A stretch of 64,000 nt of DNA from positions 13,827-77,826 of the forward strand of contig JBOHNX010000001.1 in NCBI GenBank assembly GCA_050730875.1, read 5' to 3'. Of this stretch, positions 4,752-16,711 are shown one piece after another. The position numbers and the translations under genes are program-made. Position 1 is the first letter of the stretch. Each line of letters starts with the position of its first letter. The notes under the pieces were generated by a model, which did not search any database, was not told the DNA's origin, and saw nothing but the letters and a program-made list of their open reading frames with translations. This stretch comes from Candidatus Saccharimonadales bacterium (lineage in GTDB: Bacteria > Patescibacteriota > Saccharimonadia > Saccharimonadales > EFPC-124).

Positions 4752-4768
4752 GGCTCTAGAGGACTCGA
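4752..4768. repeat. Direct repeat of the tRNA-Val 3' end (17 nt)
   Basis: GGCTCTAGAGGACTCGA at 4752-4768 is identical to 4929-4945, which lies inside tRNA-Val. Confidence 0.85.
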
Positions 4769-4886
4769 TTTTTTCTTGCTCGCTCCTGATAAAATTGCAA
4801 GCAATTTTATGTCGCTCGGCCAAGCAAGGATTCCGCAAACTGCCAGTGGCAGTTTGCGCCTACCGGTTCGAGTCCGGGTGTCTATC

Positions 4887-4924
4887 AAGAAAATAAGACC
4901 ACACTTTGGTGGTCTTATTTTCTT
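4887..4924. terminator. Bidirectional hairpin abutting the tRNA-Val 3' end
   Basis: AAGAAAATAAGACCAC-ACTT-TGGTGGTCTTATTTTCTT is a long perfect stem flanked by A and T runs. Confidence 0.6.
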
Positions 4925-5000
4925 GGTGGGCTCTAGAGGACTCGAACCTCTGACCTCTTCCACGTCAAGGAAGCGCTCTAGCCAACTGAGCTAAGAGCCC
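4924..5000 (-). tRNA. tRNA-Val (GAC)
   Basis: Minus-strand cloverleaf. Acceptor GGGCTCT/AGAGCCC. Anticodon stem CTTCC/GGAAG with loop TTGACGT. CCA is encoded. Confidence 0.9.
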
Positions 5001-5094: not shown

Positions 5095-5261
5095 GCAGAG
5101 AGCGTTGAAGCGGCCTAACCACCCGCCGAGCTCCGCGAGCTACCGCGCTATTGTAGCAAAACGAGTGCTCTAGTTTACCTAGACTAGAGAAGTCCGGTGG
5201 AACCGCCCGAGATTACTTGGGTCCGAGACGCGCTGAATGATCCAGCGTGTTTTTATTTTTT
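5095..5261 (+). promoter_or_regulatory. T-box leader (Thr) with intrinsic terminator
   Basis: The T-box core AGAAGTCCGGTGGAACCGCC (5188-5207) has a UGGA bulge complementary to the U73-CCA end of tRNA-Thr. The candidate specifier ACC-A sits in the loop GCGG-CCTAACCAC-CCGC. The terminator ACGCGCTG/CAGCGTGT plus a T-run lies at 5228-5261. Confidence 0.7.
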
Positions 5262-7111: not shown

Positions 7112-7429
7112 ATGCCAGGATTTAATAAAGAGTTTGCCGAACGTGTGTACGCCCTCGTAGCCCAGATTCCTGAGGGTAGGGTGATGAGTTATGGTCAAAT
7201 TGCGGCGCTGTGCGGTAAACCTCGCGGTGCTTGGGAGGTTGGGCAGATCGCACACTTTGGACCGACGGAACTTCCATGGCATAGGGTGGTGAACAAGCAG
7301 GGAGGTCTGGCTGCCGGCTGGCCAGGAGGTGGGCGCGATGCGCACAAGGCGCTTCTGGAGGCCGAGGGAGTAGAGGTGACCGAAGACTATCTTATTGATA
7401 TCAATAAACTCCAATGGTGGCCAGAATGA
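7112..7429 (+). CDS. Alkyltransferase-like (ATL) / MGMT-family DNA-binding protein without the active-site Cys
   Basis: 105-aa ORF. Carries PWHRVV where methyltransferases have PCHRV. An HTH-like YGQIAALCG lies upstream of it. Confidence 0.75.
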   Translation: MPGFNKEFAERVYALVAQIPEGRVMSYGQIAALCGKPRGAWEVGQIAHFGPTELPWHRVVNKQGGLAAGWPGGGRDAHKALLEAEGVEVTEDYLIDINKLQWWPE

Positions 7430-8286
7430 ATAAACCCCTCGTTGTTATTGTAGGTCCTACCGCCAGTGGTAAATCAGATTTAGCCATGCAGATGGCTCTG
7501 AAACACAATGGCGAGATTATTTGTGCAGACTCTCGTACTGTATATAAAGGTATGGACATTGGAACTGCGAAGCCGAGCGCCGAAGATCAAGCAAAAGTGC
7601 GTCACCATCTTGTTGATCTAGTAGAACCGAACCAACATTTCTCAGCTGCTGAGTTTAAAAAGCGAGCAGAAGAAGCTATTCGTGACATCCACCGGAGAGG
7701 CAAGCTGCCAATTATGGTGGGAGGTACGGGGCTGTACGTAGATGCTGTAATTTTTAACTATCAATTTGGCCCACCTACAGACCCTGAACTGCGCGCAAAG
7801 CTCCAGGCACTAAGTATAGAAAAGCTACAGGAATTGTGTAGAGAAAAAAACATCAAATTGCCAGAAAATATCTCAAACAAACGCCACCTAATCCGCGCAA
7901 TTGAGCTTGGCGGTCTCATCAAGGCTGCCAGAGAAGTAAAGTCGAACACGTTTGTTGTGGGAATGGCTATAGAAAAGAAGAAACTACGTGATCGTATTAT
8001 AGAGCGTACGGCTGCAATGGTTCGCGAGGGAATTCTTGAAGAGGTGGAAAAACTTGGCGCTAAATATGGCTGGGAGAGTGAAGCAATGACCGGTAATATT
8101 TACCGCATTTTTAAAGGTGTCGTGTTACATAAAAAACCATTGCAAACTGCGATTGAAGAATTCATCCGGGCTGATATGAAGTTAGCTAAACGACAAATGA
8201 CCTGGTTTAAGCGCAACCCCTTTATAGTCTGGGGATCGCCAAGTGAGTTGGCGCATAAAATTGATCAATTTGTCGGGGCGAATTAA
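7426..8286 (+). CDS. miaA: tRNA dimethylallyltransferase
   Basis: Contains the P-loop GPTASGKS and the motif ADSRTVYKGMDIGTAKPS. The ATG at 7426 follows GGTGG and overlaps the upstream TGA. An alternative ATG lies at 7414. Confidence 0.88.
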   Translation: MNKPLVVIVGPTASGKSDLAMQMALKHNGEIICADSRTVYKGMDIGTAKPSAEDQAKVRHHLVDLVEPNQHFSAAEFKKRAEEAIRDIHRRGKLPIMVGGTGLYVDAVIFNYQFGPPTDPELRAKLQALSIEKLQELCREKNIKLPENISNKRHLIRAIELGGLIKAAREVKSNTFVVGMAIEKKKLRDRIIERTAAMVREGILEEVEKLGAKYGWESEAMTGNIYRIFKGVVLHKKPLQTAIEEFIRADMKLAKRQMTWFKRNPFIVWGSPSELAHKIDQFVGAN

Positions 8287-8352
8287 CAGGTCGACTATCG
8301 CCCAAGAACTATCTTTTGTTACAATAGGCATGAAATCGGGTATAGTGAGAAT

Positions 8353-8943
8353 ATGATTGACGCCTTATTTGGTTCAAAAACACGAGTAAAACTTTTACAC
8401 CTGTTCCTTAACAATCCGAACAGAGCTTTTTATGTTCGTGAAATTACCCGTAAAATTGACGAACAAATTAACTCGGTTCGTCGCGAGCTTGCCAACATGA
8501 TGAGCGTGGGCATTATAAAAAGTGACAGTTCGAACAACCGGTTATACTACGAGGTCAATCAAGACTATCAACATTACGAATCCCTTCGAGCAATCTTTGC
8601 GGATGGTTCGGTGGACGCAGAAGGCGCAGAAGCGGTTTCTAGCGACTGGACCAAACGTCTTAAAGTGCTTGGCGATGTGCGAGTTGCCTTATTAAGCGGT
8701 GGTTTGGTCCGCGGTAGCCAAAGTGATGTAGATGTACTGCTAGCGGGGAATATCAACAAAACGCAGGCTAAGAAGTTTATAAAAGAACTAGAGGAAGAAG
8801 AAGGCCGACAGCTAAATTACACAATCATGCCGTATGAAGATTTTTATTATCGATTAAGTATTAAAGATCGTTTCATTACCAGCGTTATTAATGGTAAGTT
8901 CACATTGCTGCAAGATACAGAGCATATACTATCAGAGGCTTAA
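8353..8943 (+). CDS. Winged-helix regulator fused to a minimal nucleotidyltransferase-like domain
   Basis: The N-terminus resembles ArsR/MarR wHTH (FYVREITRKIDEQINSVRRELANM). The C-terminus has GSQSDVDVLL, a GS...DxD NTase signature. Confidence 0.5.
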   Translation: MIDALFGSKTRVKLLHLFLNNPNRAFYVREITRKIDEQINSVRRELANMMSVGIIKSDSSNNRLYYEVNQDYQHYESLRAIFADGSVDAEGAEAVSSDWTKRLKVLGDVRVALLSGGLVRGSQSDVDVLLAGNINKTQAKKFIKELEEEEGRQLNYTIMPYEDFYYRLSIKDRFITSVINGKFTLLQDTEHILSEA

Positions 8944-8958
8944 AGGAAGGAAACTCAA

Positions 8959-9594
8959 ATGGATTTCGAATTTAAAGGCGGTAACTGTGTTGTCATCTCA
9001 CATAAAAAGGACACATTTGTAATAGACCCTAAGCTGAGCGACATTGGCCTGAAAGACCAAGGGGGTCATGCATCAGCGCATTTGTTGACACAGCCCCGTT
9101 TTGCGGCTGCTCATGACGAGGAAACACTGATTATAGATGGACCAGGGGAGTACGAGATAAATAACTGTTCTATAAAGGGTATAGCAGCGCAGGCTCATCT
9201 TGATACAGCTGAGGCGCCTAAAGCGGCTACCATTTATACACTAGACACAGCCGATATTACCGTAGCAATCCTAGGGCACATTTACCCTACATTGAACGAG
9301 GAACAACTTGAAGCAATTGGTGTTGTCGACATATTGGTTGTACCTGTTGGTGGCAACGGATATACGGTAGATGCTAAAGGTGCTGTAGAACTGGTGCGGA
9401 ACATCAACCCCAAGGCAGTTATTCCTACGCATTACGCCGAAGAAGGAGTGAAGTACGAAGTGCCCCAAGCGCCTCTCGAAGAGTTTTTGAAGGAACTAGG
9501 TGGAACACATACAGAGCCTACTGCTAAGCTCAAACTCAAGAGTGGCCAATTGCCCGAGATTCTCACCGTATTCCAGCTGCAGCACACAAAATAG
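8959..9594 (+). CDS. MBL-fold metal-dependent hydrolase (UPF0173-like)
   Basis: 211-aa ORF. Contains ILVVPVGGNGYTVDAKGAVELVRNINPKAVIPTHY, typical of this family. Confidence 0.65.
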   Translation: MDFEFKGGNCVVISHKKDTFVIDPKLSDIGLKDQGGHASAHLLTQPRFAAAHDEETLIIDGPGEYEINNCSIKGIAAQAHLDTAEAPKAATIYTLDTADITVAILGHIYPTLNEEQLEAIGVVDILVVPVGGNGYTVDAKGAVELVRNINPKAVIPTHYAEEGVKYEVPQAPLEEFLKELGGTHTEPTAKLKLKSGQLPEILTVFQLQHTK

Positions 9595-9596
9595 AA

Positions 9597-9626
9597 GAAA
9601 AGCCCCTTATTACAAGGGGCTTTTCT
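9597..9626. terminator. Bidirectional terminator between convergent genes
   Basis: GAAAAGCCCCTT-ATTAC-AAGGGGCTTTTC. Confidence 0.7.
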
Positions 9627-9644
9627 TAAGAGGTAGAAAAAGTC

Positions 9645-9836
9645 TTAAAGGACACCCTTTTTCTTAAGGGTACGAATTGCTTGGGTGCTGAGGTTCATAG
9701 TTACCTTTTGCCCATCAATCGTGAAGGTCTTTTTCTGCAGGTTTGGCTTCCATACACGCTTAACGTGACGTTGCGAAAAGCTAACGTGGTTGCCAAACTG
9801 TTTGCCTTTACCGGTGAGTTCGCATTGTGCAGCCAT
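9645..9836 (-). CDS. rpmB: 50S ribosomal protein L28
   Basis: 63-aa ORF reading MAAQCELTGKGKQFGNHVSFSQRHVKRVWKPNLQKK. Confidence 0.92.
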   Translation of the reverse strand: MAAQCELTGKGKQFGNHVSFSQRHVKRVWKPNLQKKTFTIDGQKVTMNLSTQAIRTLKKKGVL

Positions 9837-9920
9837 TAATTTGTCTCTGATTACAATGGAACATTCTACTTTGTTTCATCTGTTACGTCAAGATTGGTTA
9901 AATATTGGTATACTATGTGA

Positions 9921-10562
9921 ATGATGAATATAGATCTGACGTACTTATTGATCGTTTTAGGGTCAATTTTAATCTCGATGACCCTGCACGAGGCCATGCA
10001 TGCTTTTGCGAGTTACTGGCTAGGGGATGACACTGCAAAGGCGCTTGGTAGGCTAACGATTAACCCGATTGCGCATATTGACCCCTTCACGACTGTATTG
10101 TTGCCTCTGATGCTTGCAGCAATTGGAGCACCGCCGTTTGGTGCCGCTAAGCCCGTGCCTTTTAATCCGTACCGTTTACGATACGGCGAATATGGGTCAG
10201 CGATCGTGGGTGCCGCTGGACCACTGACTAACCTGGCATTAGCAATCCTCGCCGGGCTGGTAATTCGTCTTTTTGGTGCCGAACTTGATGGCGGTCTCTT
10301 AGTGGCACTTGGAACGTTTACACTTGTTAACTTGGCGTTCTTCATATTTAATATGATTCCTTTCCCGCCGCTAGATGGTTCGCGGGTGCTTTACGCATTT
10401 GCGCCTGACGGTGTACGGCGTGTTATGGAGCGCATAGAGTCTATGGGTTTTGCGGCAATAATCTTCTTTATGTTAATCTTCTTCGCCGTTCTTAGCGAGC
10501 CATTTGTTCGTGTGTTACAAGGCGCTTTAGCTCTCATTACGGGTGGCTACGTTACATTTTAG
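9921..10562 (+). CDS. Site-2 protease family (peptidase M50) membrane metalloprotease
   Basis: HEAMHAF (HExxH) lies within the first TM region. The protein has multiple TM helices and a PPLDG motif. Confidence 0.8.
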   Translation: MMNIDLTYLLIVLGSILISMTLHEAMHAFASYWLGDDTAKALGRLTINPIAHIDPFTTVLLPLMLAAIGAPPFGAAKPVPFNPYRLRYGEYGSAIVGAAGPLTNLALAILAGLVIRLFGAELDGGLLVALGTFTLVNLAFFIFNMIPFPPLDGSRVLYAFAPDGVRRVMERIESMGFAAIIFFMLIFFAVLSEPFVRVLQGALALITGGYVTF

Positions 10563-10580
10563 AGGTGTTATAATGAGGGT

Positions 10581-10736
10581 GTCCTGCTTACTAAGCATGC
10601 AGGTGATATGATTTTTCCTGAACAATCGAACCGCGCATAGGGAGTCCTAGATCAAAATTTCCGTGGAAATTTTGTGCGGACACCCACTTGTCTATACAAG
10701 CGGGGAATATCTATCGCCTGTACACGTAAGCAGGAC
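10581..10736 (+). ncRNA. Candidate rod-like structured RNA immediately upstream of tRNA-Pro (6S-like? unassigned)
   Basis: TATAAT at 10569-10574. The ends pair over 11 bp (GTCCTGCTTAC at 10581-91 with GTAAGCAGGAC at 10726-36). The rod continues with CAGGTGATA (10600-08) paired to TATCGCCTG (10712-20), plus further helices and internal hairpins. Confidence 0.3.
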
Positions 10737-10750
10737 TGTTTATTGCCAAT

Positions 10751-10826
10751 CGGGATGTGGCGCAGTTGGTAGCGCGTACGGCTGGGGGCCGTGAGGTCGC
10801 AGGTTCAAGTCCTGTCATCCCGACCA
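10751..10826 (+). tRNA. tRNA-Pro (GGG)
   Basis: C1:G72 acceptor (CGGGATG/CATCCCG). Anticodon stem TACGG/CCGTG with loop CTGGGGG. CCA is encoded. Confidence 0.9.
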
Positions 10827-11120
10827 TTTTGTAAATCACTTGCTTCAAGGAGCGTTGCAAACGGCTCCGACCAGAGGTAGTTTGTTAGTTTTTTATGTCC
10901 AACATGTATGTTTAAAAACAAGTTCTGACCAGGCACTCGACAGCATACACAGGGTACGCACCCAAGAAGAAGCGAGCCATACACGCTTATAGGCTACCTT
11001 GATGTGCGCGTGGATATGGAGGCAGTAGATGTTGTCGCATGGGAGTCGCCACAGCAAAGCGAATAACTTTATATCACGTAACAGTTTACTTTATTGGTCG
11101 GTCTGCTACTCTGTTAACAA

Positions 11121-11978
11121 ATGTCAGGCCAATTTGAGCGTTATACTACCCCGCCACCGCTTTGTCGTGAACCCGGCTTTATTAGAGATACACGCGAGTT
11201 GGTAGAAGAAAATGGCGGTATAGCGCAGGCTGTAGCCGAAACTTTTGAGCAAGCCAATATTACCGTTGAAGTGGACGGGGACGTATCACAGTGGTCAAAC
11301 GCAGGCCAAGGAGCGATACTCGTAGGCGACCACCGTAACGGCGTTGAATATGCGCCGCTTTTGGCCGTATTTGGTAATATGGGGCGCGAGGACATGCGTT
11401 TTGTGGCCAAGCCGTTCTCTATGCAAGCTCGTGTTATGGGTTCACTCGGCTTGGAGGGCGCAGGCTTAACCCTGCTCGTAATACCTGGTACACTGGCCAG
11501 CAACCGCAAAGATAAAATCAACAGGGACTTATGTTGGCGCATTGCTAATAGGGGTAATTTGCCCACTAAGGATGAGATTAAGACCTTAAACGCTGATACT
11601 TTACAAGGCTGCGCTGACCTAGCCGAGAGTGGACACGCAGTTACGCTTTACCCGACGGGAGGGGTTATGGATGCCACCAAGAAGCCTTGGCAGCGTGGGC
11701 TCGGTAGGGTTATTAAGCAGCTCCCAGCGGAGTCCCGCGATAGTGTTGCTATTGTACCGTTCCGTTTTGATGACTTCTCGAAATTAAGGCTTATTCGCTC
11801 GCTGACTATGGCGAGCAGAGGTGTAATATCGCGCCCACAGACCATTACGCTTCGCACCGGCAAGCAAGGCACCGTTAACGAAGTTTTAGCTGGCGCTACT
11901 GATGAGCTGACCGCCGATGAGATTACGGCCGTACTCAGGAAACAGTTTATAACTGCCTTTGGTGAGCTCGAGCACTGA
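11121..11978 (+). CDS. PlsC/LPLAT-superfamily acyltransferase-like protein
   Basis: 285-aa ORF. Carries an HX4D/E-like motif (GDHRNGVE) and YPTGG in place of FPEGT. Confidence 0.5.
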   Translation: MSGQFERYTTPPPLCREPGFIRDTRELVEENGGIAQAVAETFEQANITVEVDGDVSQWSNAGQGAILVGDHRNGVEYAPLLAVFGNMGREDMRFVAKPFSMQARVMGSLGLEGAGLTLLVIPGTLASNRKDKINRDLCWRIANRGNLPTKDEIKTLNADTLQGCADLAESGHAVTLYPTGGVMDATKKPWQRGLGRVIKQLPAESRDSVAIVPFRFDDFSKLRLIRSLTMASRGVISRPQTITLRTGKQGTVNEVLAGATDELTADEITAVLRKQFITAFGELEH

Positions 11979-12532
11979 TGGCCGTCAGGAGGCAGCTTGT
12001 AATAATTCCTGGCCTTGGTGATAGGGGATGGCTATACTGTTTTATAAAGCCGATTTGGGCATTGTTTGGCTATAAGGTGCACATATTTGTATTTGGGTGG
12101 AATGATGAGCGTGCGGCTTTTAAGGAAGCGCAAAATCGCCTCAACACCTCTATTAAAGGTCTGGGTGATGAGGTATACCTTATCGGTGTAAGTGCGGGCG
12201 GTACGGCCGCTGTGAACGCCCTTGCAGCTCATCCTACGTCTATCACTAAACTCGCCACTGTTTGTACGCCATACCAACAGGTACCTGGCCTTAAAAACGA
12301 GCTACTGGCTCAATCTATAAACCGTACAGCTCGCAATCTCGCGCATATGGATAGCAAAACGAAGGCCAAGATTTTATCCGTGCACGGCCTATACGACCAG
12401 GCCGTGCCTGTAAAATACAGCGAGCCGGACGGTATCCAGCGCAAGTCATTGCTTGCCATTGGTCATGGGTTGGCTGTAGCCTTGGCTCTATCTGTTTATA
12501 GCCGAAGTATCCGTTTGTTTTTGAAAGATTAA
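11978..12532 (+). CDS. Alpha/beta-hydrolase (lipase/esterase-like)
   Basis: Nucleophile elbow GVSAGG. Candidate Asp (LYDQAVP) and His (AIGHG) complete the triad. The start overlaps the upstream stop by 1 nt. Confidence 0.6.
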   Translation: MAVRRQLVIIPGLGDRGWLYCFIKPIWALFGYKVHIFVFGWNDERAAFKEAQNRLNTSIKGLGDEVYLIGVSAGGTAAVNALAAHPTSITKLATVCTPYQQVPGLKNELLAQSINRTARNLAHMDSKTKAKILSVHGLYDQAVPVKYSEPDGIQRKSLLAIGHGLAVALALSVYSRSIRLFLKD

Positions 12533-12613
12533 GGGCAGCATTTACCTGCGACCGTAGACATAAACGTCCACTGGACGTTTATGTTTTCCTTGCTTGGCTG
12601 AGCAAAACACGAA

Positions 12614-12633
12614 GCAGGTTCAAGTCCTGTCAT
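12614..12633. repeat. Direct repeat of the tRNA-Pro 3' portion (20 nt)
   Basis: GCAGGTTCAAGTCCTGTCAT is identical to 10799-10818, which covers the T-arm and the start of the acceptor 3' strand. Confidence 0.85.
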
Positions 12634-12700
12634 AAATAGTAATGGTGAATGTACCTAAATCCTACCATCTAAAGATCATTTGTTTTAAAGTAGTAATACC

Positions 12701-13570
12701 ATGAAACAAACAATCACCGTCCGAGCCATTATAAAAGAGGACCAAAAGATTCTCTTGTTGCGGCGTGCGACCGGAAATCCACTTTACCAAAACCTGTATG
12801 AATTACCCGGTGGCAAAGTTGATTTTGGCGAGGATCCAAAAGCGACTATCCATAGAGAAACATTCGAGGAGACGGGGAGTGAGATAGAAACACTTCAACT
12901 CTTCGACGTATATTCCCAAATAGATCCGCATGATACCGACCACCAATACTTATACGTTATATTTCTTGCAACGTTAACTCCTCATAGCAAGATCGTTCTA
13001 AGTTCTGAACATAATAAGTATGCATGGAAAAGATTGTCAGAAATACAGCTTTCAGAAATAACTGAATGGACGCGTATTGCGCTACAACTAGAAGGCGAAT
13101 CGCCTGAAGAACAGATTGAAAAAACAGAGATTCAAAAAGATATTGATGTTCTTCCTACATCAAAACATGCGCGCGTTGTTATTTATGCGGACGGCGGATC
13201 ACGTGGTAACCCAGGTCCTTCAGCCTCAGGTTTTGTGATTCAGGACGAAAAAGAGCAACTTGTGTTTGAAGGTGGCAATTATCTAGGTATAACAACAAAT
13301 AATCAGGCAGAGTATCAAGCAGTAAAGCTGGCTCTCGAAAAAGCGCTTGAACTCGGTGCGCGCGAGGTGAGCTTCCGTATAGATAGCCAGTTGGTCGCCA
13401 ACCAGTTAAATGGAATCTACCAAATTAAAAACCGTGATTTATGGCCAATTTACACGCGTATCAAGGAATTGGTAACCAAATTCGACAACGTAACTTTCAC
13501 CCATGTGCGACGCGAGTTTAATAAAGAAGCCGACGCAATGGTCAACAAAATACTCGACGAGCATAAGTAG
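12701..13570 (+). CDS. NUDIX hydrolase - RNase HI fusion protein
   Basis: The N-terminus has a Nudix box (GGKVDFGEDPKATIHRETFEETG). The C-terminus is RNase H type 1 (YADGGSRGNPGPSASG...NNQAEYQAV...RIDSQLV...NKEADAMVN). Confidence 0.8.
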   Translation: MKQTITVRAIIKEDQKILLLRRATGNPLYQNLYELPGGKVDFGEDPKATIHRETFEETGSEIETLQLFDVYSQIDPHDTDHQYLYVIFLATLTPHSKIVLSSEHNKYAWKRLSEIQLSEITEWTRIALQLEGESPEEQIEKTEIQKDIDVLPTSKHARVVIYADGGSRGNPGPSASGFVIQDEKEQLVFEGGNYLGITTNNQAEYQAVKLALEKALELGAREVSFRIDSQLVANQLNGIYQIKNRDLWPIYTRIKELVTKFDNVTFTHVRREFNKEADAMVNKILDEHK

Positions 13571-13576
13571 TATATA

Positions 13577-13605
13577 TTGCTTATCTTATAAATAACTTGT
13601 ATAAT
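13577..13605 (+). promoter_or_regulatory. rnpB promoter
   Basis: TTGCTT, 17-nt spacer, TATAAT, ending 6 nt before the RNA 5' pairing region. Confidence 0.6.
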
Positions 13606-13610
13606 AGTGA

Positions 13611-14020
13611 GGTTGTCAGACTACTAGACGATCGCTTAGCCTTAGGGCTAAGAGGAAAGTCCGGGCAGCATAGGACAAGGCAGTTGTTAACCGCAACCGG
13701 GGGCGACCCTAGGGAAAGTGTCACAGAAACGAAACCGCCTTCACTAGTGAGGGTAAGGATGAAACGAGTGGGCCCAGCTCGTCTGGGATAGGTCTCTTTC
13801 TGCGAGAGCTTAAGAGACTGAAGGTAAGAGCCCACAGCGTGTCATGGTGACATGACACGGAGGTAAACCCTGCCTGCTGCAAGGAGGTCTGTTTTCCACC
13901 CTAAAGGTGGTAGTGGTTCCACTAAATAGACCGCATGAACCGCTTGACTACGACGGGCAACCGTCTAGCTAGATAGATGATCGTCCTGGACAGAACCCGG
14001 CTTACCGGTAGTCTGACATC
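13611..14020 (+). ncRNA. rnpB: RNase P RNA, bacterial type A
   Basis: Conserved GAGGAAAGTCCGGGC and ACAGAACCCGGCTTAC are present. The terminal P1 pairs GTTGTCAGACTAC with GTAGTCTGACATC. Confidence 0.9.
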
Positions 14021-14021
14021 T

Positions 14022-14052
14022 AAAAAACACCGCTATTTTTGCGGTGTTTTTT
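14022..14052. terminator. Bidirectional terminator (rnpB / rplT)
   Basis: AAAAAACACCGC-TATTTT-TGCGGTGTTTTTT. Confidence 0.75.
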
Positions 14053-14067
14053 AGTGCATTTTGGCTT

Positions 14068-14409
14068 TTATTTAGCGCTTTTAACTACTTCTGCGAAAAC
14101 CTTAGGCTCGTTTGCTGCTAGCTCTGCTAGAATTTTGCGATCGAGTTCAATGTTAGCCTTCTTGAGGCCAGCGATTAGCTTGGCGTATGTAGTGCCGTTT
14201 TCGCGGGCAGCAGCGTTGATGCGGGTGATCCAGGTCTCACGGAAATCACGTTTCTTGTTGCGACGGTCACGGTATGCGTACTGCAAAGCACGAATAACAG
14301 CTTGTTTAGCTAAGCGGTACGAACGGCGACGAGCCGCTTGCATGCCTTTGGCAAGCTGTAAAATCTTCTTGTGTTTGCGTCGGGCGGCGACGCCTCGTTT
14401 GATTCTCAT
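14068..14409 (-). CDS. rplT: 50S ribosomal protein L20
   Basis: 113-aa ORF reading [22 protein letters not shown]. Confidence 0.95.
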
Positions 14410-14413
14410 TCTT

Positions 14414-14608
14414 CTAAACTCCTAGTGCACGCTTTAGATTTCGCGCAACAGATCCTTTAATACTAGCTTCGGTGGAAATAACGCGCTTGCGACTTGCGCT
14501 TTTCTTCTCGAGCAAGTGCGTGCCGTTACTACGACGGCGGATGAGCTTGCCGCCAGCGCTGATTTTAATGCGCTTCGCGGTGCCCTGATGTGTTTTGAGC
14601 TTTGGCAT
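14414..14608 (-). CDS. rpmI: 50S ribosomal protein L35
   Basis: 64-aa ORF reading [26 protein letters not shown]. Confidence 0.95.
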
Positions 14609-15116
14609 TTGCAGTACTCCTTAAAACGATACCTAAATTCTTACCAGCCATAATTGGCTTTTGTTCGACTACAGCGACATCTTGTAGCTTTTCGACGATT
14701 CTATCGAGCAGTTTGTAGCCAAGTTCTTGGTGAGCCATCTCGCGTCCTCGGAAGAAAGCCATGACTTTAACTCGGTGGCCAGCTTCGAGGAACTCGCGGA
14801 TTTTGCGCAACTTTATGTCTAAGTCGTGCGCGCCTATCTTGAGTCCCATGCGCATTTGCTTTATTTCGACGGCCTTGGCTTGTCGTCGGCTTCGCTGTTG
14901 CTCCTTAGTCTTCTGGTAGAGGAATTTACCCCAGTCAACAATCCGCGCAACTGGTGGATTGGCTTGTGGCGAAATTTCTACCAGATCGAGACCAGCTCGC
15001 TCTGCTTCTAAAAGTGCCTGCGCCCGTGACAGGATACCGATCTGATTCCCATCAGGACCAATGACGCGCAGTTCTGAAGCGTGAATCGCTTCATTAATCC
15101 GCACTGCTTTACTAAT
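14565..15116 (-). CDS. infC: Translation initiation factor IF-3, predicted ATT start
   Basis: IF-3 sequence (RINEAIHASELRVIGPDG...). AAAGGAG followed by 8 nt then an in-frame ATT at 15116, the classic infC AUU start. The 3' end overlaps rpmI by 44 nt. Confidence 0.88.
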   Translation of the reverse strand: MSKAVRINEAIHASELRVIGPDGNQIGILSRAQALLEAERAGLDLVEISPQANPPVARIVDWGKFLYQKTKEQQRSRRQAKAVEIKQMRMGLKIGAHDLDIKLRKIREFLEAGHRVKVMAFFRGREMAHQELGYKLLDRIVEKLQDVAVVEQKPIMAGKNLGIVLRSTANAKAQNTSGHREAH

Positions 15117-15193
15117 AGAACTTGCTCCTTTGTCGTTGTCGCATTTTAGCCTATGTTTTCGAAGAGCAATTGTAGCAGAGGTGAGCTCTGATT

Positions 15194-16711
15194 TCAACTG
15201 GTAAGTTGTATTCTCGGTCGGTATTGCAGTGCTTCTGAAATATGTTGAGTCTCCGTGGTGGTGGAACCTTCGAGATCTGCAATAGTCCGCGCGACCTTGA
15301 TCACCTTAAAATAACCCCTTGCTGACAGCTGTAGATTTGTTGCGGCACGGTCGAGAAGTTGTTTCGCAGCCGGCTCTAAATTAACCACTGCTTGTATATC
15401 TCTGTTTGTAAGATGCGCATTGGTTTTTTCTGATTTTCCAAACCGCGCTCTTTGTGTGTCGCGCGCGGTTAAAATATTGCGTTGGACATCTTGTGCCTGT
15501 GATGGGCCTTTATGTGAGCGAAGGAGCCTGTCTGCATCGACTCGAGACACTTCAACTATCATATCGATACGGTCCAATAGCGGACCTGATACTTTCTTTT
15601 GGTACTGCATAATTTGGTGGGCGCTGCAGGTGCATTCGCGGCTGGGGTCAGTCGCATAACCGCAAGGACAGGGATTTTGAGTGGCTATAAGCATAAAGTC
15701 GGCAGGGTAGGAGACGCGATCATTAGCTCGAACAATATGAACTCGCTTATCTTCAAGCGGTTGGCGCAGCGCTTCAAGCGCCTGGCGAGAGTATTCAGGT
15801 AGCTCATCCAAAAACAGGACACCTCTGTGCGCTAAGCTAACTTCGCCAGGGCGAGGCACCCGGCCACCTCCAATAAGGGCAATGTGGCTTGCGCTATGGT
15901 GGGGTGAGCGGAATGGTCTGCTCGCAAGTACCTCCTCGTAGCATTCACCCGCAAGGCTGTGTAGCTTGGTTACTTCAATAATTTCTTCCCGAGACAATGG
16001 CGGCAGTATAGAGGTCAATGCTTTCGCGAGCATAGTCTTACCAGCGCCAGGCGGGCCATTGAATAGAATATTATGGTGACCCGCCGCGGCGATAACGAGC
16101 GCGCGTTTCGCTTGCTCTTGGCCTTGAACGTCGTCCAAATCGATGCTGGACGCACTTGCGCGTACTGTAATGGTCGGTGCATTTTGCGGTTGGATGGGAG
16201 CAGCATTGTTGAGGTGTAAATATATATCACGTAGTGTGTGGGCAGTAAGCACTGTTACGCCCTCTACCAATTGGGCCTGAGCGAGATTGGCCTCAGGTAC
16301 AATAATGGTTGCTATGTTGTGCTGCCGGGCTGTTTGTGCGTGATTGATGACACCTTTTATCGGCCGAAGCGTGCCATCTAACGCGAGTTCACCTACAACA
16401 AGAACATCATCAAGTGATTTTTGCGGCAGTTGTCCACTCGTGACCAGAAGTGCCAGTGCAATAGGGAGGTCAAAATGGGCTCCATCTTTGGGAAGATTGG
16501 CCGGAGCGAGATTGACAGTGAGGCGCTTTCTGGGAAATTCCAAACCGCTATTCTTTATGGCGCTGCGCACACGTTCTTTTGCTTCGTCGATTGCTTTATT
16601 GCCAAGCCCAACTATTAGGAGTCCGGGCAAACCATTGCTAGCATCGCATTCTACCTCGATGAGCTCACCCTCAAACCCGATACTAGTCGCAGAAAATACA
16701 CACGCCGTCAT
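15194..16711 (-). CDS. comM: YifB/ComM-family Mg-chelatase-like ATPase
   Basis: 505-aa ORF. N-terminal Lon-like domain, Walker A GPPGAGKT, and a C-terminal ChlI-like region. Confidence 0.88.
   Translation of the reverse strand: MTACVFSATSIGFEGELIEVECDASNGLPGLLIVGLGNKAIDEAKERVRSAIKNSGLEFPRKRLTVNLAPANLPKDGAHFDLPIALALLVTSGQLPQKSLDDVLVVGELALDGTLRPIKGVINHAQTARQHNIATIIVPEANLAQAQLVEGVTVLTAHTLRDIYLHLNNAAPIQPQNAPTITVRASASSIDLDDVQGQEQAKRALVIAAAGHHNILFNGPPGAGKTMLAKALTSILPPLSREEIIEVTKLHSLAGECYEEVLASRPFRSPHHSASHIALIGGGRVPRPGEVSLAHRGVLFLDELPEYSRQALEALRQPLEDKRVHIVRANDRVSYPADFMLIATQNPCPCGYATDPSRECTCSAHQIMQYQKKVSGPLLDRIDMIVEVSRVDADRLLRSHKGPSQAQDVQRNILTARDTQRARFGKSEKTNAHLTNRDIQAVVNLEPAAKQLLDRAATNLQLSARGYFKVIKVARTIADLEGSTTTETQHISEALQYRPRIQLTS

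Follow-up and report, generated by a model that had tools for sequence, protein, structure and literature searches.

How did an acyltransferase gene and a hydrolase gene come to lie between a tRNA gene and the gene that follows this tRNA in relatives? The question was raised by a stretch of 64,000 nt from a Candidatus Saccharimonadales bacterium (assembly GCA_050730875.1, contig JBOHNX010000001.1), hereafter the window, in which an intact tRNA-Pro gene with anticodon GGG and an encoded CCA (10751-10826, plus strand; called by ARAGORN, 63.8 bits with the Rfam tRNA model) is followed by a 1.8-kb islet carrying an acyltransferase gene (ACT) and an alpha/beta-hydrolase gene (ABH), and only then by the gene for a NUDIX-RNase H protein (NudRNH). 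A first-pass annotation of the window had pointed to a 20-nt piece of the tRNA that recurs beyond the two genes, and had read the arrangement as the attL/attR footprint of a tRNA-targeting integrative element that has lost its integrase. Our analysis supports an att-type scar at tRNA-Pro with horizontally acquired, partly decayed cargo. The feature is real, a decayed tRNA-linked islet. As an insertion event it is nothing unusual; what makes it interesting is what it carries, two enzymes that may serve lipid salvage, and the existence of comparable small scars beside further tRNA genes.

The window holds two exact copies of the 20-mer GCAGGTTCAAGTCCTGTCAT, one at 10799-10818 inside the tRNA gene and one at 12614-12633 (both on the plus strand), 1,815 nt apart, and a search of the 64 kb for further copies with up to three mismatches returned none. 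Shuffled sequences gave an expectation of 0.02 matches, and two or more matches were seen in 0 of 100 shuffles. The left copy equals tRNA positions 49-68, i.e. the whole T-arm (49-65) plus CAT, with which the 3' acceptor strand begins (66-68); the attL-like end is thus the intact tRNA itself, and the attR-like right copy comes without the last 8 nt of the tRNA. Identity between the copies ends sharply on both sides, with GAGGTC in the tRNA vs CACGAA at the second copy on the 5' side and CCCGACCA in the tRNA vs AAATAG at the second copy on the 3' side. Local alignment of the second copy to the tRNA yielded the 20-mer alone and no longer degenerate homology, and the 20-mer is the sole significant tRNA-derived match in the gap between tRNA-Pro and the NudRNH gene.

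An overlap of 20 nt equals k-1 for k=21, and the junctions were therefore checked against a second assembly for a mis-join in a k=21 graph. The independent Logan assembly of run SRR27067773 holds a 28.9-kb contig which is 100% identical to window positions 7121-15978 (8,858 bp) and spans both junctions, and mis-assembly was ruled out. Thus the exact repeat of the T-arm and part of the acceptor of tRNA-Pro stands as first described: it was recovered by exact match search, is non-random against shuffles and is present in both assemblies.

The bracketed segment is a lineage-specific insertion. Via alignment of NudRNH homologues we fetched 80 Saccharimonadales loci (the best 80 of at least 600 stretches in a scan of genome contigs), and two closer relatives were added by exact protein look-up, which gave 82 syntenic loci (L numbers below denote retrieved loci); the nearest relatives share a NudRNH identity of 58% (contig scan) to 69% (protein search) with the window. 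The order tRNA-Val, threonyl-tRNA synthetase (ThrRS), MGMT, MiaA, orf196, MBL, L28, M50, (tRNA-Pro), NudRNH, RNase P RNA, L20, L35, IF3 and ComM is conserved across these loci, and neither ACT nor ABH was found at the syntenic locus in any of the 82; the gene order and repeat of the window are clearly not common to all relatives. tRNA-Pro(GGG) lies upstream of NudRNH in 23 of the 68 loci with a full-length NudRNH match, and in 17 of these 23 the distance between the two is 9-124 nt, vs 1,874 nt in the window. On the point that the first-pass annotation had wished to see checked, tRNA-Pro directly precedes the NUDIX-RNase H gene at empty sites: 23 nt separate the tRNA from the start codon in L091 (69% NudRNH identity), and 63 nt separate tRNA-Pro from the NudRNH start in L008, whose tRNA-Pro is nearly identical to that of the window.

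Larger gaps are present in six loci with full-length NudRNH (L015, L030, L035, L036, L047 and L092; 176-1,736 nt), and also in L075 and L078-L081, where the RNase H part alone matches. They are mostly filled by unrelated genes (GNAT-like, EEP-like, transporter and unknown, from translations judged by eye), and the tRNA-Pro/NudRNH junction is therefore a recurrent insertion point; the gap of L047 is a local rearrangement with an inverted M50 gene and no simple insertion. No recombinase or integrase is encoded in the larger tRNA-Pro gaps of the relatives, and no significant tRNA-derived repeat was detected at the occupied tRNA-Pro sites of L015, L030, L036, L075, L078-L081 and L092. A separate observation concerns the target: tRNA-Pro(GGG) was uncalled between M50 and NudRNH in 40 of the 68 loci (L009-L011, L017, L021, L023-L029 and others), and the isoacceptor gene is therefore itself patchy at this position.

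The right edge of the islet is formed by a conserved module (12549-12605, plus strand; defined by nhmmer, shuffled alignments and a covariance model), which consists of a hairpin, H1 (~12557-12585), with the centre CCACTGG and a following TTTT, and of the motif CCTTGCTTGGCTGAGCAA (12588-12605). Written out, H1 is CATAAACGTCC-ACT-GGACGTTTATG (ACT being nucleotides here, not the gene) and the motif is TCCTTGCTTGGCTGAGCAA; together they occupy 12557-12605 and end 8 nt before the right 20-mer. The module recurs elsewhere in the window, in a sister scar without cargo at tRNA-Val(GAC) (4752-5000, minus strand). Read along the minus strand, tRNA-Val (5000-4924) gives way to a terminator, then to a structured segment of 155 nt and finally to 17 nt that repeat tRNA positions 56-72 (4768-4752), and the module lies at 4868-4811 with the hairpin GCAAACTGCC-ACT-GGCAGTTTGC (again nucleotides) and the motif TCCTTGCTTGGCCGAGCGA; the site is empty in L008, L063 and other relatives. 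L079 and L040 each have the module as well, 3' of their transfer-messenger RNA (tmRNA) genes, and there it runs up to a duplicate of the 3' end of the tmRNA, 21 or 17 nt long.

These similarities are far from random. The tRNA-Pro module matched the tRNA-Val and tmRNA modules at E = 1.9e-6 (nhmmer), 0 of 500 shuffles equalled the scores of the local alignments among the modules, and H1 shows compensatory changes in 5 of its 11 pairs. Moreover a covariance model (R1) returned exactly four full-length matches in 1.29 Mb (71 bits for the tRNA-Pro module), and all four lie at most 60 nt upstream of a copy of a tRNA or tmRNA (hereafter t(m)RNA) 3' end, namely at tRNA-Pro and tRNA-Val of the window and at the tmRNA genes of L079 and L040. 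The recurrence of the module beside other t(m)RNA 3'-end copies therefore supports the reading of the tRNA-Pro locus as an att scar. Module homologues stand right after the tRNA-Pro terminator in L030 and L092, with only that terminator between tRNA end and module in L030, and the tmRNA of L092 has a 66-nt version of the module.

Among the 90 t(m)RNA genes scanned, 11 have an end duplication (at least 12 nt of the 3' or 5' end nearby), with copies of 15-29 nt; ten of the 11 are cargo-less, with the copy 64-198 nt away, and coding cargo was seen only at tRNA-Pro of the window. Complete copies, extending as far as the CCA end in keeping with a classical attR, were seen in L079, L058, L040 (tRNA-Val) and L088. 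Loci outside the window with t(m)RNA end copies were L015, L030, L040, L050, L052, L058, L079, L088 and L092; the copies often stand beside a CTGCCAGTGGCAG-type hairpin and an inverted T-arm-like stretch, and neither an Rfam family nor a recombinase was assigned to them. A transposon or a miniature inverted-repeat transposable element (MITE) was considered and rejected: the duplicated stretches have no fixed length (15-29 nt) and in every case come from a t(m)RNA end, there is no transposase, and the left part of the module has only an inverted T-arm-like stretch. Against Rfam, neither the module nor the surroundings of the right copy gave a family, with a tRNA match under the threshold as the one exception, and a scan of IMG/VR with the module motif gave one chance match in a contig of 63% GC.

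The contents of the islet are largely as the first-pass annotation had listed them, an acyltransferase-like open reading frame (ORF), a GxSxG hydrolase ORF and no integrase, with one correction on the left. There, 294 nt after tRNA-Pro (10827-11120) are without an intact gene, in agreement with the 290-bp non-coding stretch that had been described, yet part of them is the relic of a gene. The contig of the closest ACT homologue (P0002, 80% identity), L088, is homologous to the window from 10927 to 12408 (76% nucleotide identity over 1,495 columns), and this homology therefore begins 194 nt upstream of the ACT start codon. The upstream part is the end of a 188-aa gene which precedes the acyltransferase gene in L088 (orf188; no Pfam family). 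A tblastn search with L088 orf188 placed residues 142-155 at 10927-10968 and residues 158-184 at 10974-11054 in different frames, and the "non-coding" stretch is therefore a truncated, frameshifted third gene of the cassette, of which a C-terminal remnant (residues ~142-184) survives at 10927-11054 (plus strand). The 100 nt directly 3' of the tRNA (10827-10926, plus strand) were not traced to an origin: no homologue was found among the fetched loci, no stable fold is predicted (z = 0.03), and any likeness to the hairpin module lies within chance (36-55 of 500 shuffles did as well). The suggestion that this part might hide an integrase pseudogene failed, since the small ORFs of 10805-11205 gave no Pfam match (E <= 10), integrase fragments included.

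ACT (11121-11978, plus strand; 285 aa) was assigned to the GPAT/PlsC fold from Pfam, alignment, AlphaFold and Foldseek. Its PF01553 score of 19.2 bits is under the gathering threshold of 23, and two members of the ACT family (P0009 and P0011) carry a precomputed PF01553 match; the family is small, with 29 clusters among 5.8 billion vs more than 6,500 NudRNH homologues. The motif D70-H71-R72...E76, in which H71 is nearly invariant and E76 invariant in the family alignment, amounts to HX4E (the acidic residue is kept but is not Asp), and a "YPxGG" sequence near residues 177-181 contains a P178-x-G180 block conserved in the same alignment. The AlphaFold model is confident (predicted local distance difference test score, pLDDT, 91.6; predicted template-modelling score, pTM, 0.89) and has two N-terminal helices, as in PlsC. 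A sequence search against solved structures gave no match. The top four Foldseek matches in the PDB (8e4y, 1k30, 8ia1 and 5kym; probability 1.00 each, template-modelling (TM) scores 0.38-0.50) are human GPAT1, squash GPAT, an algal GPAT and T. maritima PlsC, all of them glycerolipid acyltransferases. The earlier label of a PlsC-like acyltransferase is thus right at the level of the predicted fold, as a GPAT/PlsC-type enzyme.

ABH (11978-12532, plus strand) encodes a predicted lid-less alpha/beta-hydrolase of 184 aa with a Ser72-Asp140-His163 triad, as judged from alignment, profiles, model and Foldseek. The GxSxG motif on which it had been named is present as the elbow GVSAGG, and S72, D140 and H163 are invariant in 39 sequences. 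The PF00561 score (22.5 bits) is under the gathering threshold of 25.8; profile matches extend over the full length of B. subtilis lipase A/EstA (181 residues for lipase A). A Foldseek search with the confident model (pLDDT 95.5) gave 835 PDB matches (E <= 0.001), with lipases, monoglyceride lipases and esterases at the top and LipA, YdeN and Lip_vut1 among them. The stop codon of ACT and the ATG of ABH share one base (TGATG), and the two genes are translationally coupled. H1 is probably the terminator of ABH, and a T-run on the hairpin was seen only in the tRNA-Pro copy of the module. As for the description of the two as lipid-remodelling genes, this role is a reading from the predicted folds: the pair most likely removes and replaces the acyl chains of glycerolipids obtained from the host.

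Beyond the syntenic locus, ACT and ABH travel together. Of ~35 retrieved contexts, only L109 does not have the two side by side (in the same direction or divergently), and the genes around them vary from clade to clade. The acyltransferase-like protein of the window is recorded from a Candidatus Saccharimonadales metagenome-assembled genome (contig of 556 kb), a homologue is present in Candidatus Saccharibacteria bacterium oral taxon 488, and another is recorded from Flindersiella endophytica. Some contexts are high in GC (58-62%), and one carries Lsr2, an actinobacterial marker. In a simple neighbour-joining tree (without support values) the clade of the window is sister to a group that includes both L120 (47% GC) and the 61% GC Lsr2 contig, and is nearer to this group than to the clade of oral Saccharibacteria. 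These sequence comparisons suggest exchange of ACT-ABH with Actinomycetota, the host phylum.

Further observations were made around the pair in its other contexts. The Lsr2-encoding contig is L003 (10643-10981; 61% GC), with an ACT 58% identical to that of the window; its place in the tree, next to Saccharibacteria-type sequences of low GC, is a hint of transfer between epibiont and host phylum. A stand-alone NUDIX gene recurs near ACT-ABH, ~0.7 kb downstream of ABH in L105, L107, L110, L111, L114, L117 and L118, and also in L001, L003 and L006; like the NUDIX-RNase H gene beside the pair in the window, it may reflect a functional link or a coincidence. A DUF1697 gene likewise recurs near ACT-ABH (L004-L007 and L120).

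We propose that 10819-12613 is what decay has left of a small element which, in this lineage of Saccharimonadales, entered tRNA-Pro(GGG) by recombination at its T-arm/3' region, a reading to which we give about an even chance. Incoming DNA would have supplied a replacement tRNA 3' end, so that the tRNA was kept intact (attL), and the original T-arm copy would have been pushed 1.8 kb downstream (attR), a course that fits the present layout. The right arm of the element is the conserved hairpin module, present also at the cargo-less tRNA-Val and tmRNA scars, and its cargo was the cassette orf188-ACT-ABH, as the homology to L088 shows. Later deletions would have removed any recombinase, three quarters of the orf188 gene and, at attR, ~16 nt with the native CCCGACCA among them, and the functional remainder would be a coupled acyltransferase/esterase pair terminated by H1. 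The cargo has the tRNA end on one side and the module's left edge on the other, which is the place that cargo would take in a full element. Because this left edge is intact and H1 would serve as the ABH terminator, a cargo-bearing member, or decay intermediate, of an element family was preferred.

Several findings weigh against this reading: i) no integrase or integrase fragment was found in the islet (ORFs and Pfam), at other occupied tRNA-Pro sites or beside the small scars; ii) the right copy runs into AAATAG and not into the native CCCGACCA that the classical model predicts, and a secondary deletion must therefore be assumed; iii) the composition is almost native, with an islet GC content of 49.5% vs 47.9 +/- 1.8% (76th percentile of same-size windows) and a tetranucleotide distance only at the 94th percentile; iv) a second ACT-ABH insertion, in the L089/L093 lineage, is bracketed by a 56-nt direct repeat (95% identical), has cassette boundaries different from those of the window and lacks the module; v) the cargo gene of L092 lies to the right of the module and not to its left; vi) the ten cargo-less scars all measure 64-198 nt, a tight range more in keeping with discrete mini-insertions than with large elements that decayed at random; vii) had the cargo entered a pre-existing scar, the repeat would be a real scar and yet be silent on how the cargo arrived.

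The second of these points can be narrowed. The spacer before the start of the NUDIX-RNase H gene (12634-12700, plus strand) is, by its sequence, probably the native tRNA-Pro-to-NUDIX spacer with ~16 nt missing at its left end: AGTAATGGTGAA and ATCTAAAG within it weakly resemble the empty-site spacers of L008, L063 and L091. At the tRNA-Val scar of the window the copy is likewise truncated, and a conserved host motif (…CCCCA..ACTTTTCCACG) resumes right after it. With this parallel and the spacer-like downstream flank, the missing CCCGACCA is best read as a small secondary deletion. The classic attL/attR footprint that had been claimed is accordingly only partly there: the intact tRNA, the copy of its 3' portion and the recurrent module agree with it, but the distal copy has no displaced native 3' end behind it.

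With regard to the third point, the compositional deviation anticipated for the islet proved marginal. Horizontal acquisition, also part of the first-pass annotation, gains from the patchy spread of the pair, its unrelated contexts, its absence from the 82 syntenic loci, the small size of the ACT family and the truncated, frameshifted orf188 at the left edge.

With regard to the fourth, the 56-nt repeat (760-815 and 2446-2501 in L089; ~806-861 and 2513-2568 in L093) covers the first part of the downstream ABC-F-type ATPase gene together with the 10 nt that precede it, and its three mismatches cluster at one end. Among the ~35 other contexts, flanking direct repeats around ACT-ABH were found only in this lineage. 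A BrnT/CopG toxin-antitoxin pair stands on the other side of the same insertion.

Points v) to vii) lead to an alternative in two steps, in which a cargo-less mini-insertion (module plus T-arm copy) came first and orf188'-ACT-ABH entered later between tRNA and module by illegitimate or homology-facilitated recombination, e.g. in natural transformation. We regard this history as possible, if rather unlikely. It would agree with the preponderance of cargo-less end duplications (155 nt in the tRNA-Val example), with the L030 module that directly follows the tRNA-Pro terminator without ACT or ABH, with the module remnant of L092 and its different cargo on the other side, with cassette boundaries unlike those of L089/L093, and with a left cargo edge that cuts orf188 as an illegitimate junction would. 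However, a random secondary hit would often split the module, whose left edge is apparently complete; the T-run of H1, found only here and serving as the ABH terminator, suggests a shared history of module and cargo; and a "scar only" state with the 20-mer at tRNA-Pro was not found in any relative among the fetched loci.

No dedicated element would be needed if a circularised or linear ACT-ABH fragment had been integrated by host recombination over short identity (Campbell-type), or at a staggered break, with duplication of 20 nt of the target; the 56 nt repeated in the L089/L093 lineage would then have arisen in the same way. Such an origin appears improbable, as it leaves unexplained both the module common to the tRNA-Val and tmRNA scars and the perfect tRNA 3' end restored at the left junction, and the usual minimum for RecA-dependent exchange exceeds 20 nt. 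It draws its appeal from the two independent ACT-ABH insertions, with target duplications of 20 and 56 nt and different cassette ends, from the lack of a recombinase at the islet and at the occupied sites, and from the clustered mismatches of the 56-nt repeat, which look as if one copy came from a related donor.

It is very improbable that the second 20-mer belongs to a functional tRNA-like RNA (a mimic of T-arm plus acceptor) that would act as a punctuation or processing signal where the transcripts of ABH and NUDIX-RNase H meet. In favour of it, the Rfam tRNA model aligns end to end with 12577-12638 at 19.4 bits (E = 0.09 for 221 nt), pairing GUUUAUG with CAUAAAU as an acceptor-like stem of 7 bp, and in 3 of 4 module copies the G-U pairs of the small hairpin are kept on the tRNA-sense strand alone. 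Against it, the score is under the gathering threshold (29), the 65-mer on its own does not adopt this structure (z = -0.76), GUUUAUG forms the 3' arm of H1, a much stronger hairpin, a D-arm and a proper anticodon arm are missing, and the tRNA-Val, L079 and L040 copies are without the 5' half of the T-stem, so that no T-arm is possible there.

A broader proposal joins module and cargo. Saccharimonadales may host an undescribed family of integrase-less modules of ~60-200 nt (a CCASTGG-centred covarying hairpin, an inverted T-arm-like stretch and a duplication of t(m)RNA 3' or 5' ends), mobilised in trans or by natural transformation and able to carry cargo; the tRNA-Pro islet would then be the first of them found with a load, and its acyltransferase/esterase pair would be exchanged between Saccharibacteria and actinobacterial hosts and used to rebuild scavenged host lipids. 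We consider this proposal, taken as a whole, unlikely.

Short of it, islet and cargo-less scars indicate that in these reduced and highly syntenic genomes DNA is still being acquired at t(m)RNA genes, via a recurrent unclassified module and with no visible recombinase. ACT-ABH is gained and lost as a unit, at different loci of Saccharibacteria and also on high-GC actinobacterial DNA, and is therefore a testable candidate for lipid salvage or remodelling. Saccharibacteria and other members of the Candidate Phyla Radiation are seen as unable to make their own membrane lipids, with the source of those lipids described as unresolved (PMC7242380); host lipid droplets are the subject of PMC10939385. 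A literature search on islands, integrases or acyltransferases of Saccharibacteria returned nothing specific. The novelty is modest, and consists of the unclassified hairpin module at several Saccharimonadales t(m)RNA scars and of the mobile acyltransferase/esterase pair.

Three features of the surrounding locus were noticed in passing. Between the M50 peptidase gene and tRNA-Pro lies a conserved structured non-coding element (10575-10742), alignable with L008 and L092, which is closed by the stem GTCCTGCTTAC/GTAAGCAGGAC and has a TATAAT immediately before it; its equivalent in L052 (660-813) has a sub-threshold match to 6S RNA (29.8 bits, E = 0.009), and the element is probably a 6S RNA gene. 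Upstream of the threonyl-tRNA synthetase gene, 5096-5229 resembles a T-box leader (32.2 bits vs a gathering score of 93; E = 3.4e-5 in a 1-kb search). One clade of relatives has the RNase H domain fused to another N-terminal domain instead of NUDIX (L075 7878-8561, L078 7677-8441, L080 7746-8438 and L081 7827-8549), which, judged by eye, may be pterin-4a-carbinolamine dehydratase-like.

Compared with known systems, ACT shares with the GPAT/PlsC enzymes (LPLAT, PF01553) the predicted fold, a His-x4-acidic motif, a "PxGG" block at equivalent positions and two N-terminal helices, and differs from them in its score under the Pfam threshold, in the Glu that replaces the Asp of HX4D, in TM scores of only 0.38-0.50 and in the missing sequence match to a solved structure. 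ABH resembles the lid-less lipases/esterases Bacillus subtilis LipA/EstA and YdeN in its ~180 residues, GxSxG elbow, Ser-Asp-His triad, lack of a lid and full-length match of profile and fold, whereas its identity to them is only 13-19%, its elbow is GVSAG vs AHSMG, and it is encoded beside an acyltransferase.

As an insertion, the islet shares with tRNA-targeting islands (tyrosine integrase, T-loop/3'-end sublocation) an intact tRNA followed by a direct copy of its 3' portion, absence from relatives and an accessory cargo, and related scars likewise target tmRNA and several tRNAs. Unlike such islands it has no integrase or excisionase, is only 1.8 kb long and is of almost native composition, and its distal copy stops 8 nt short of the tRNA end with no native 3' end following. 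With cis-mobilisable elements (CIMEs) and decayed islets the differences are that no cognate autonomous element is known for the islet, and that described CIMEs are far larger than the mini versions of 64-198 nt; on the other hand, the islet has, as these do, att-like flanks, cargo and no mobility genes, and cargo-less versions with little beyond the att-adjacent arms stand in the same genome.

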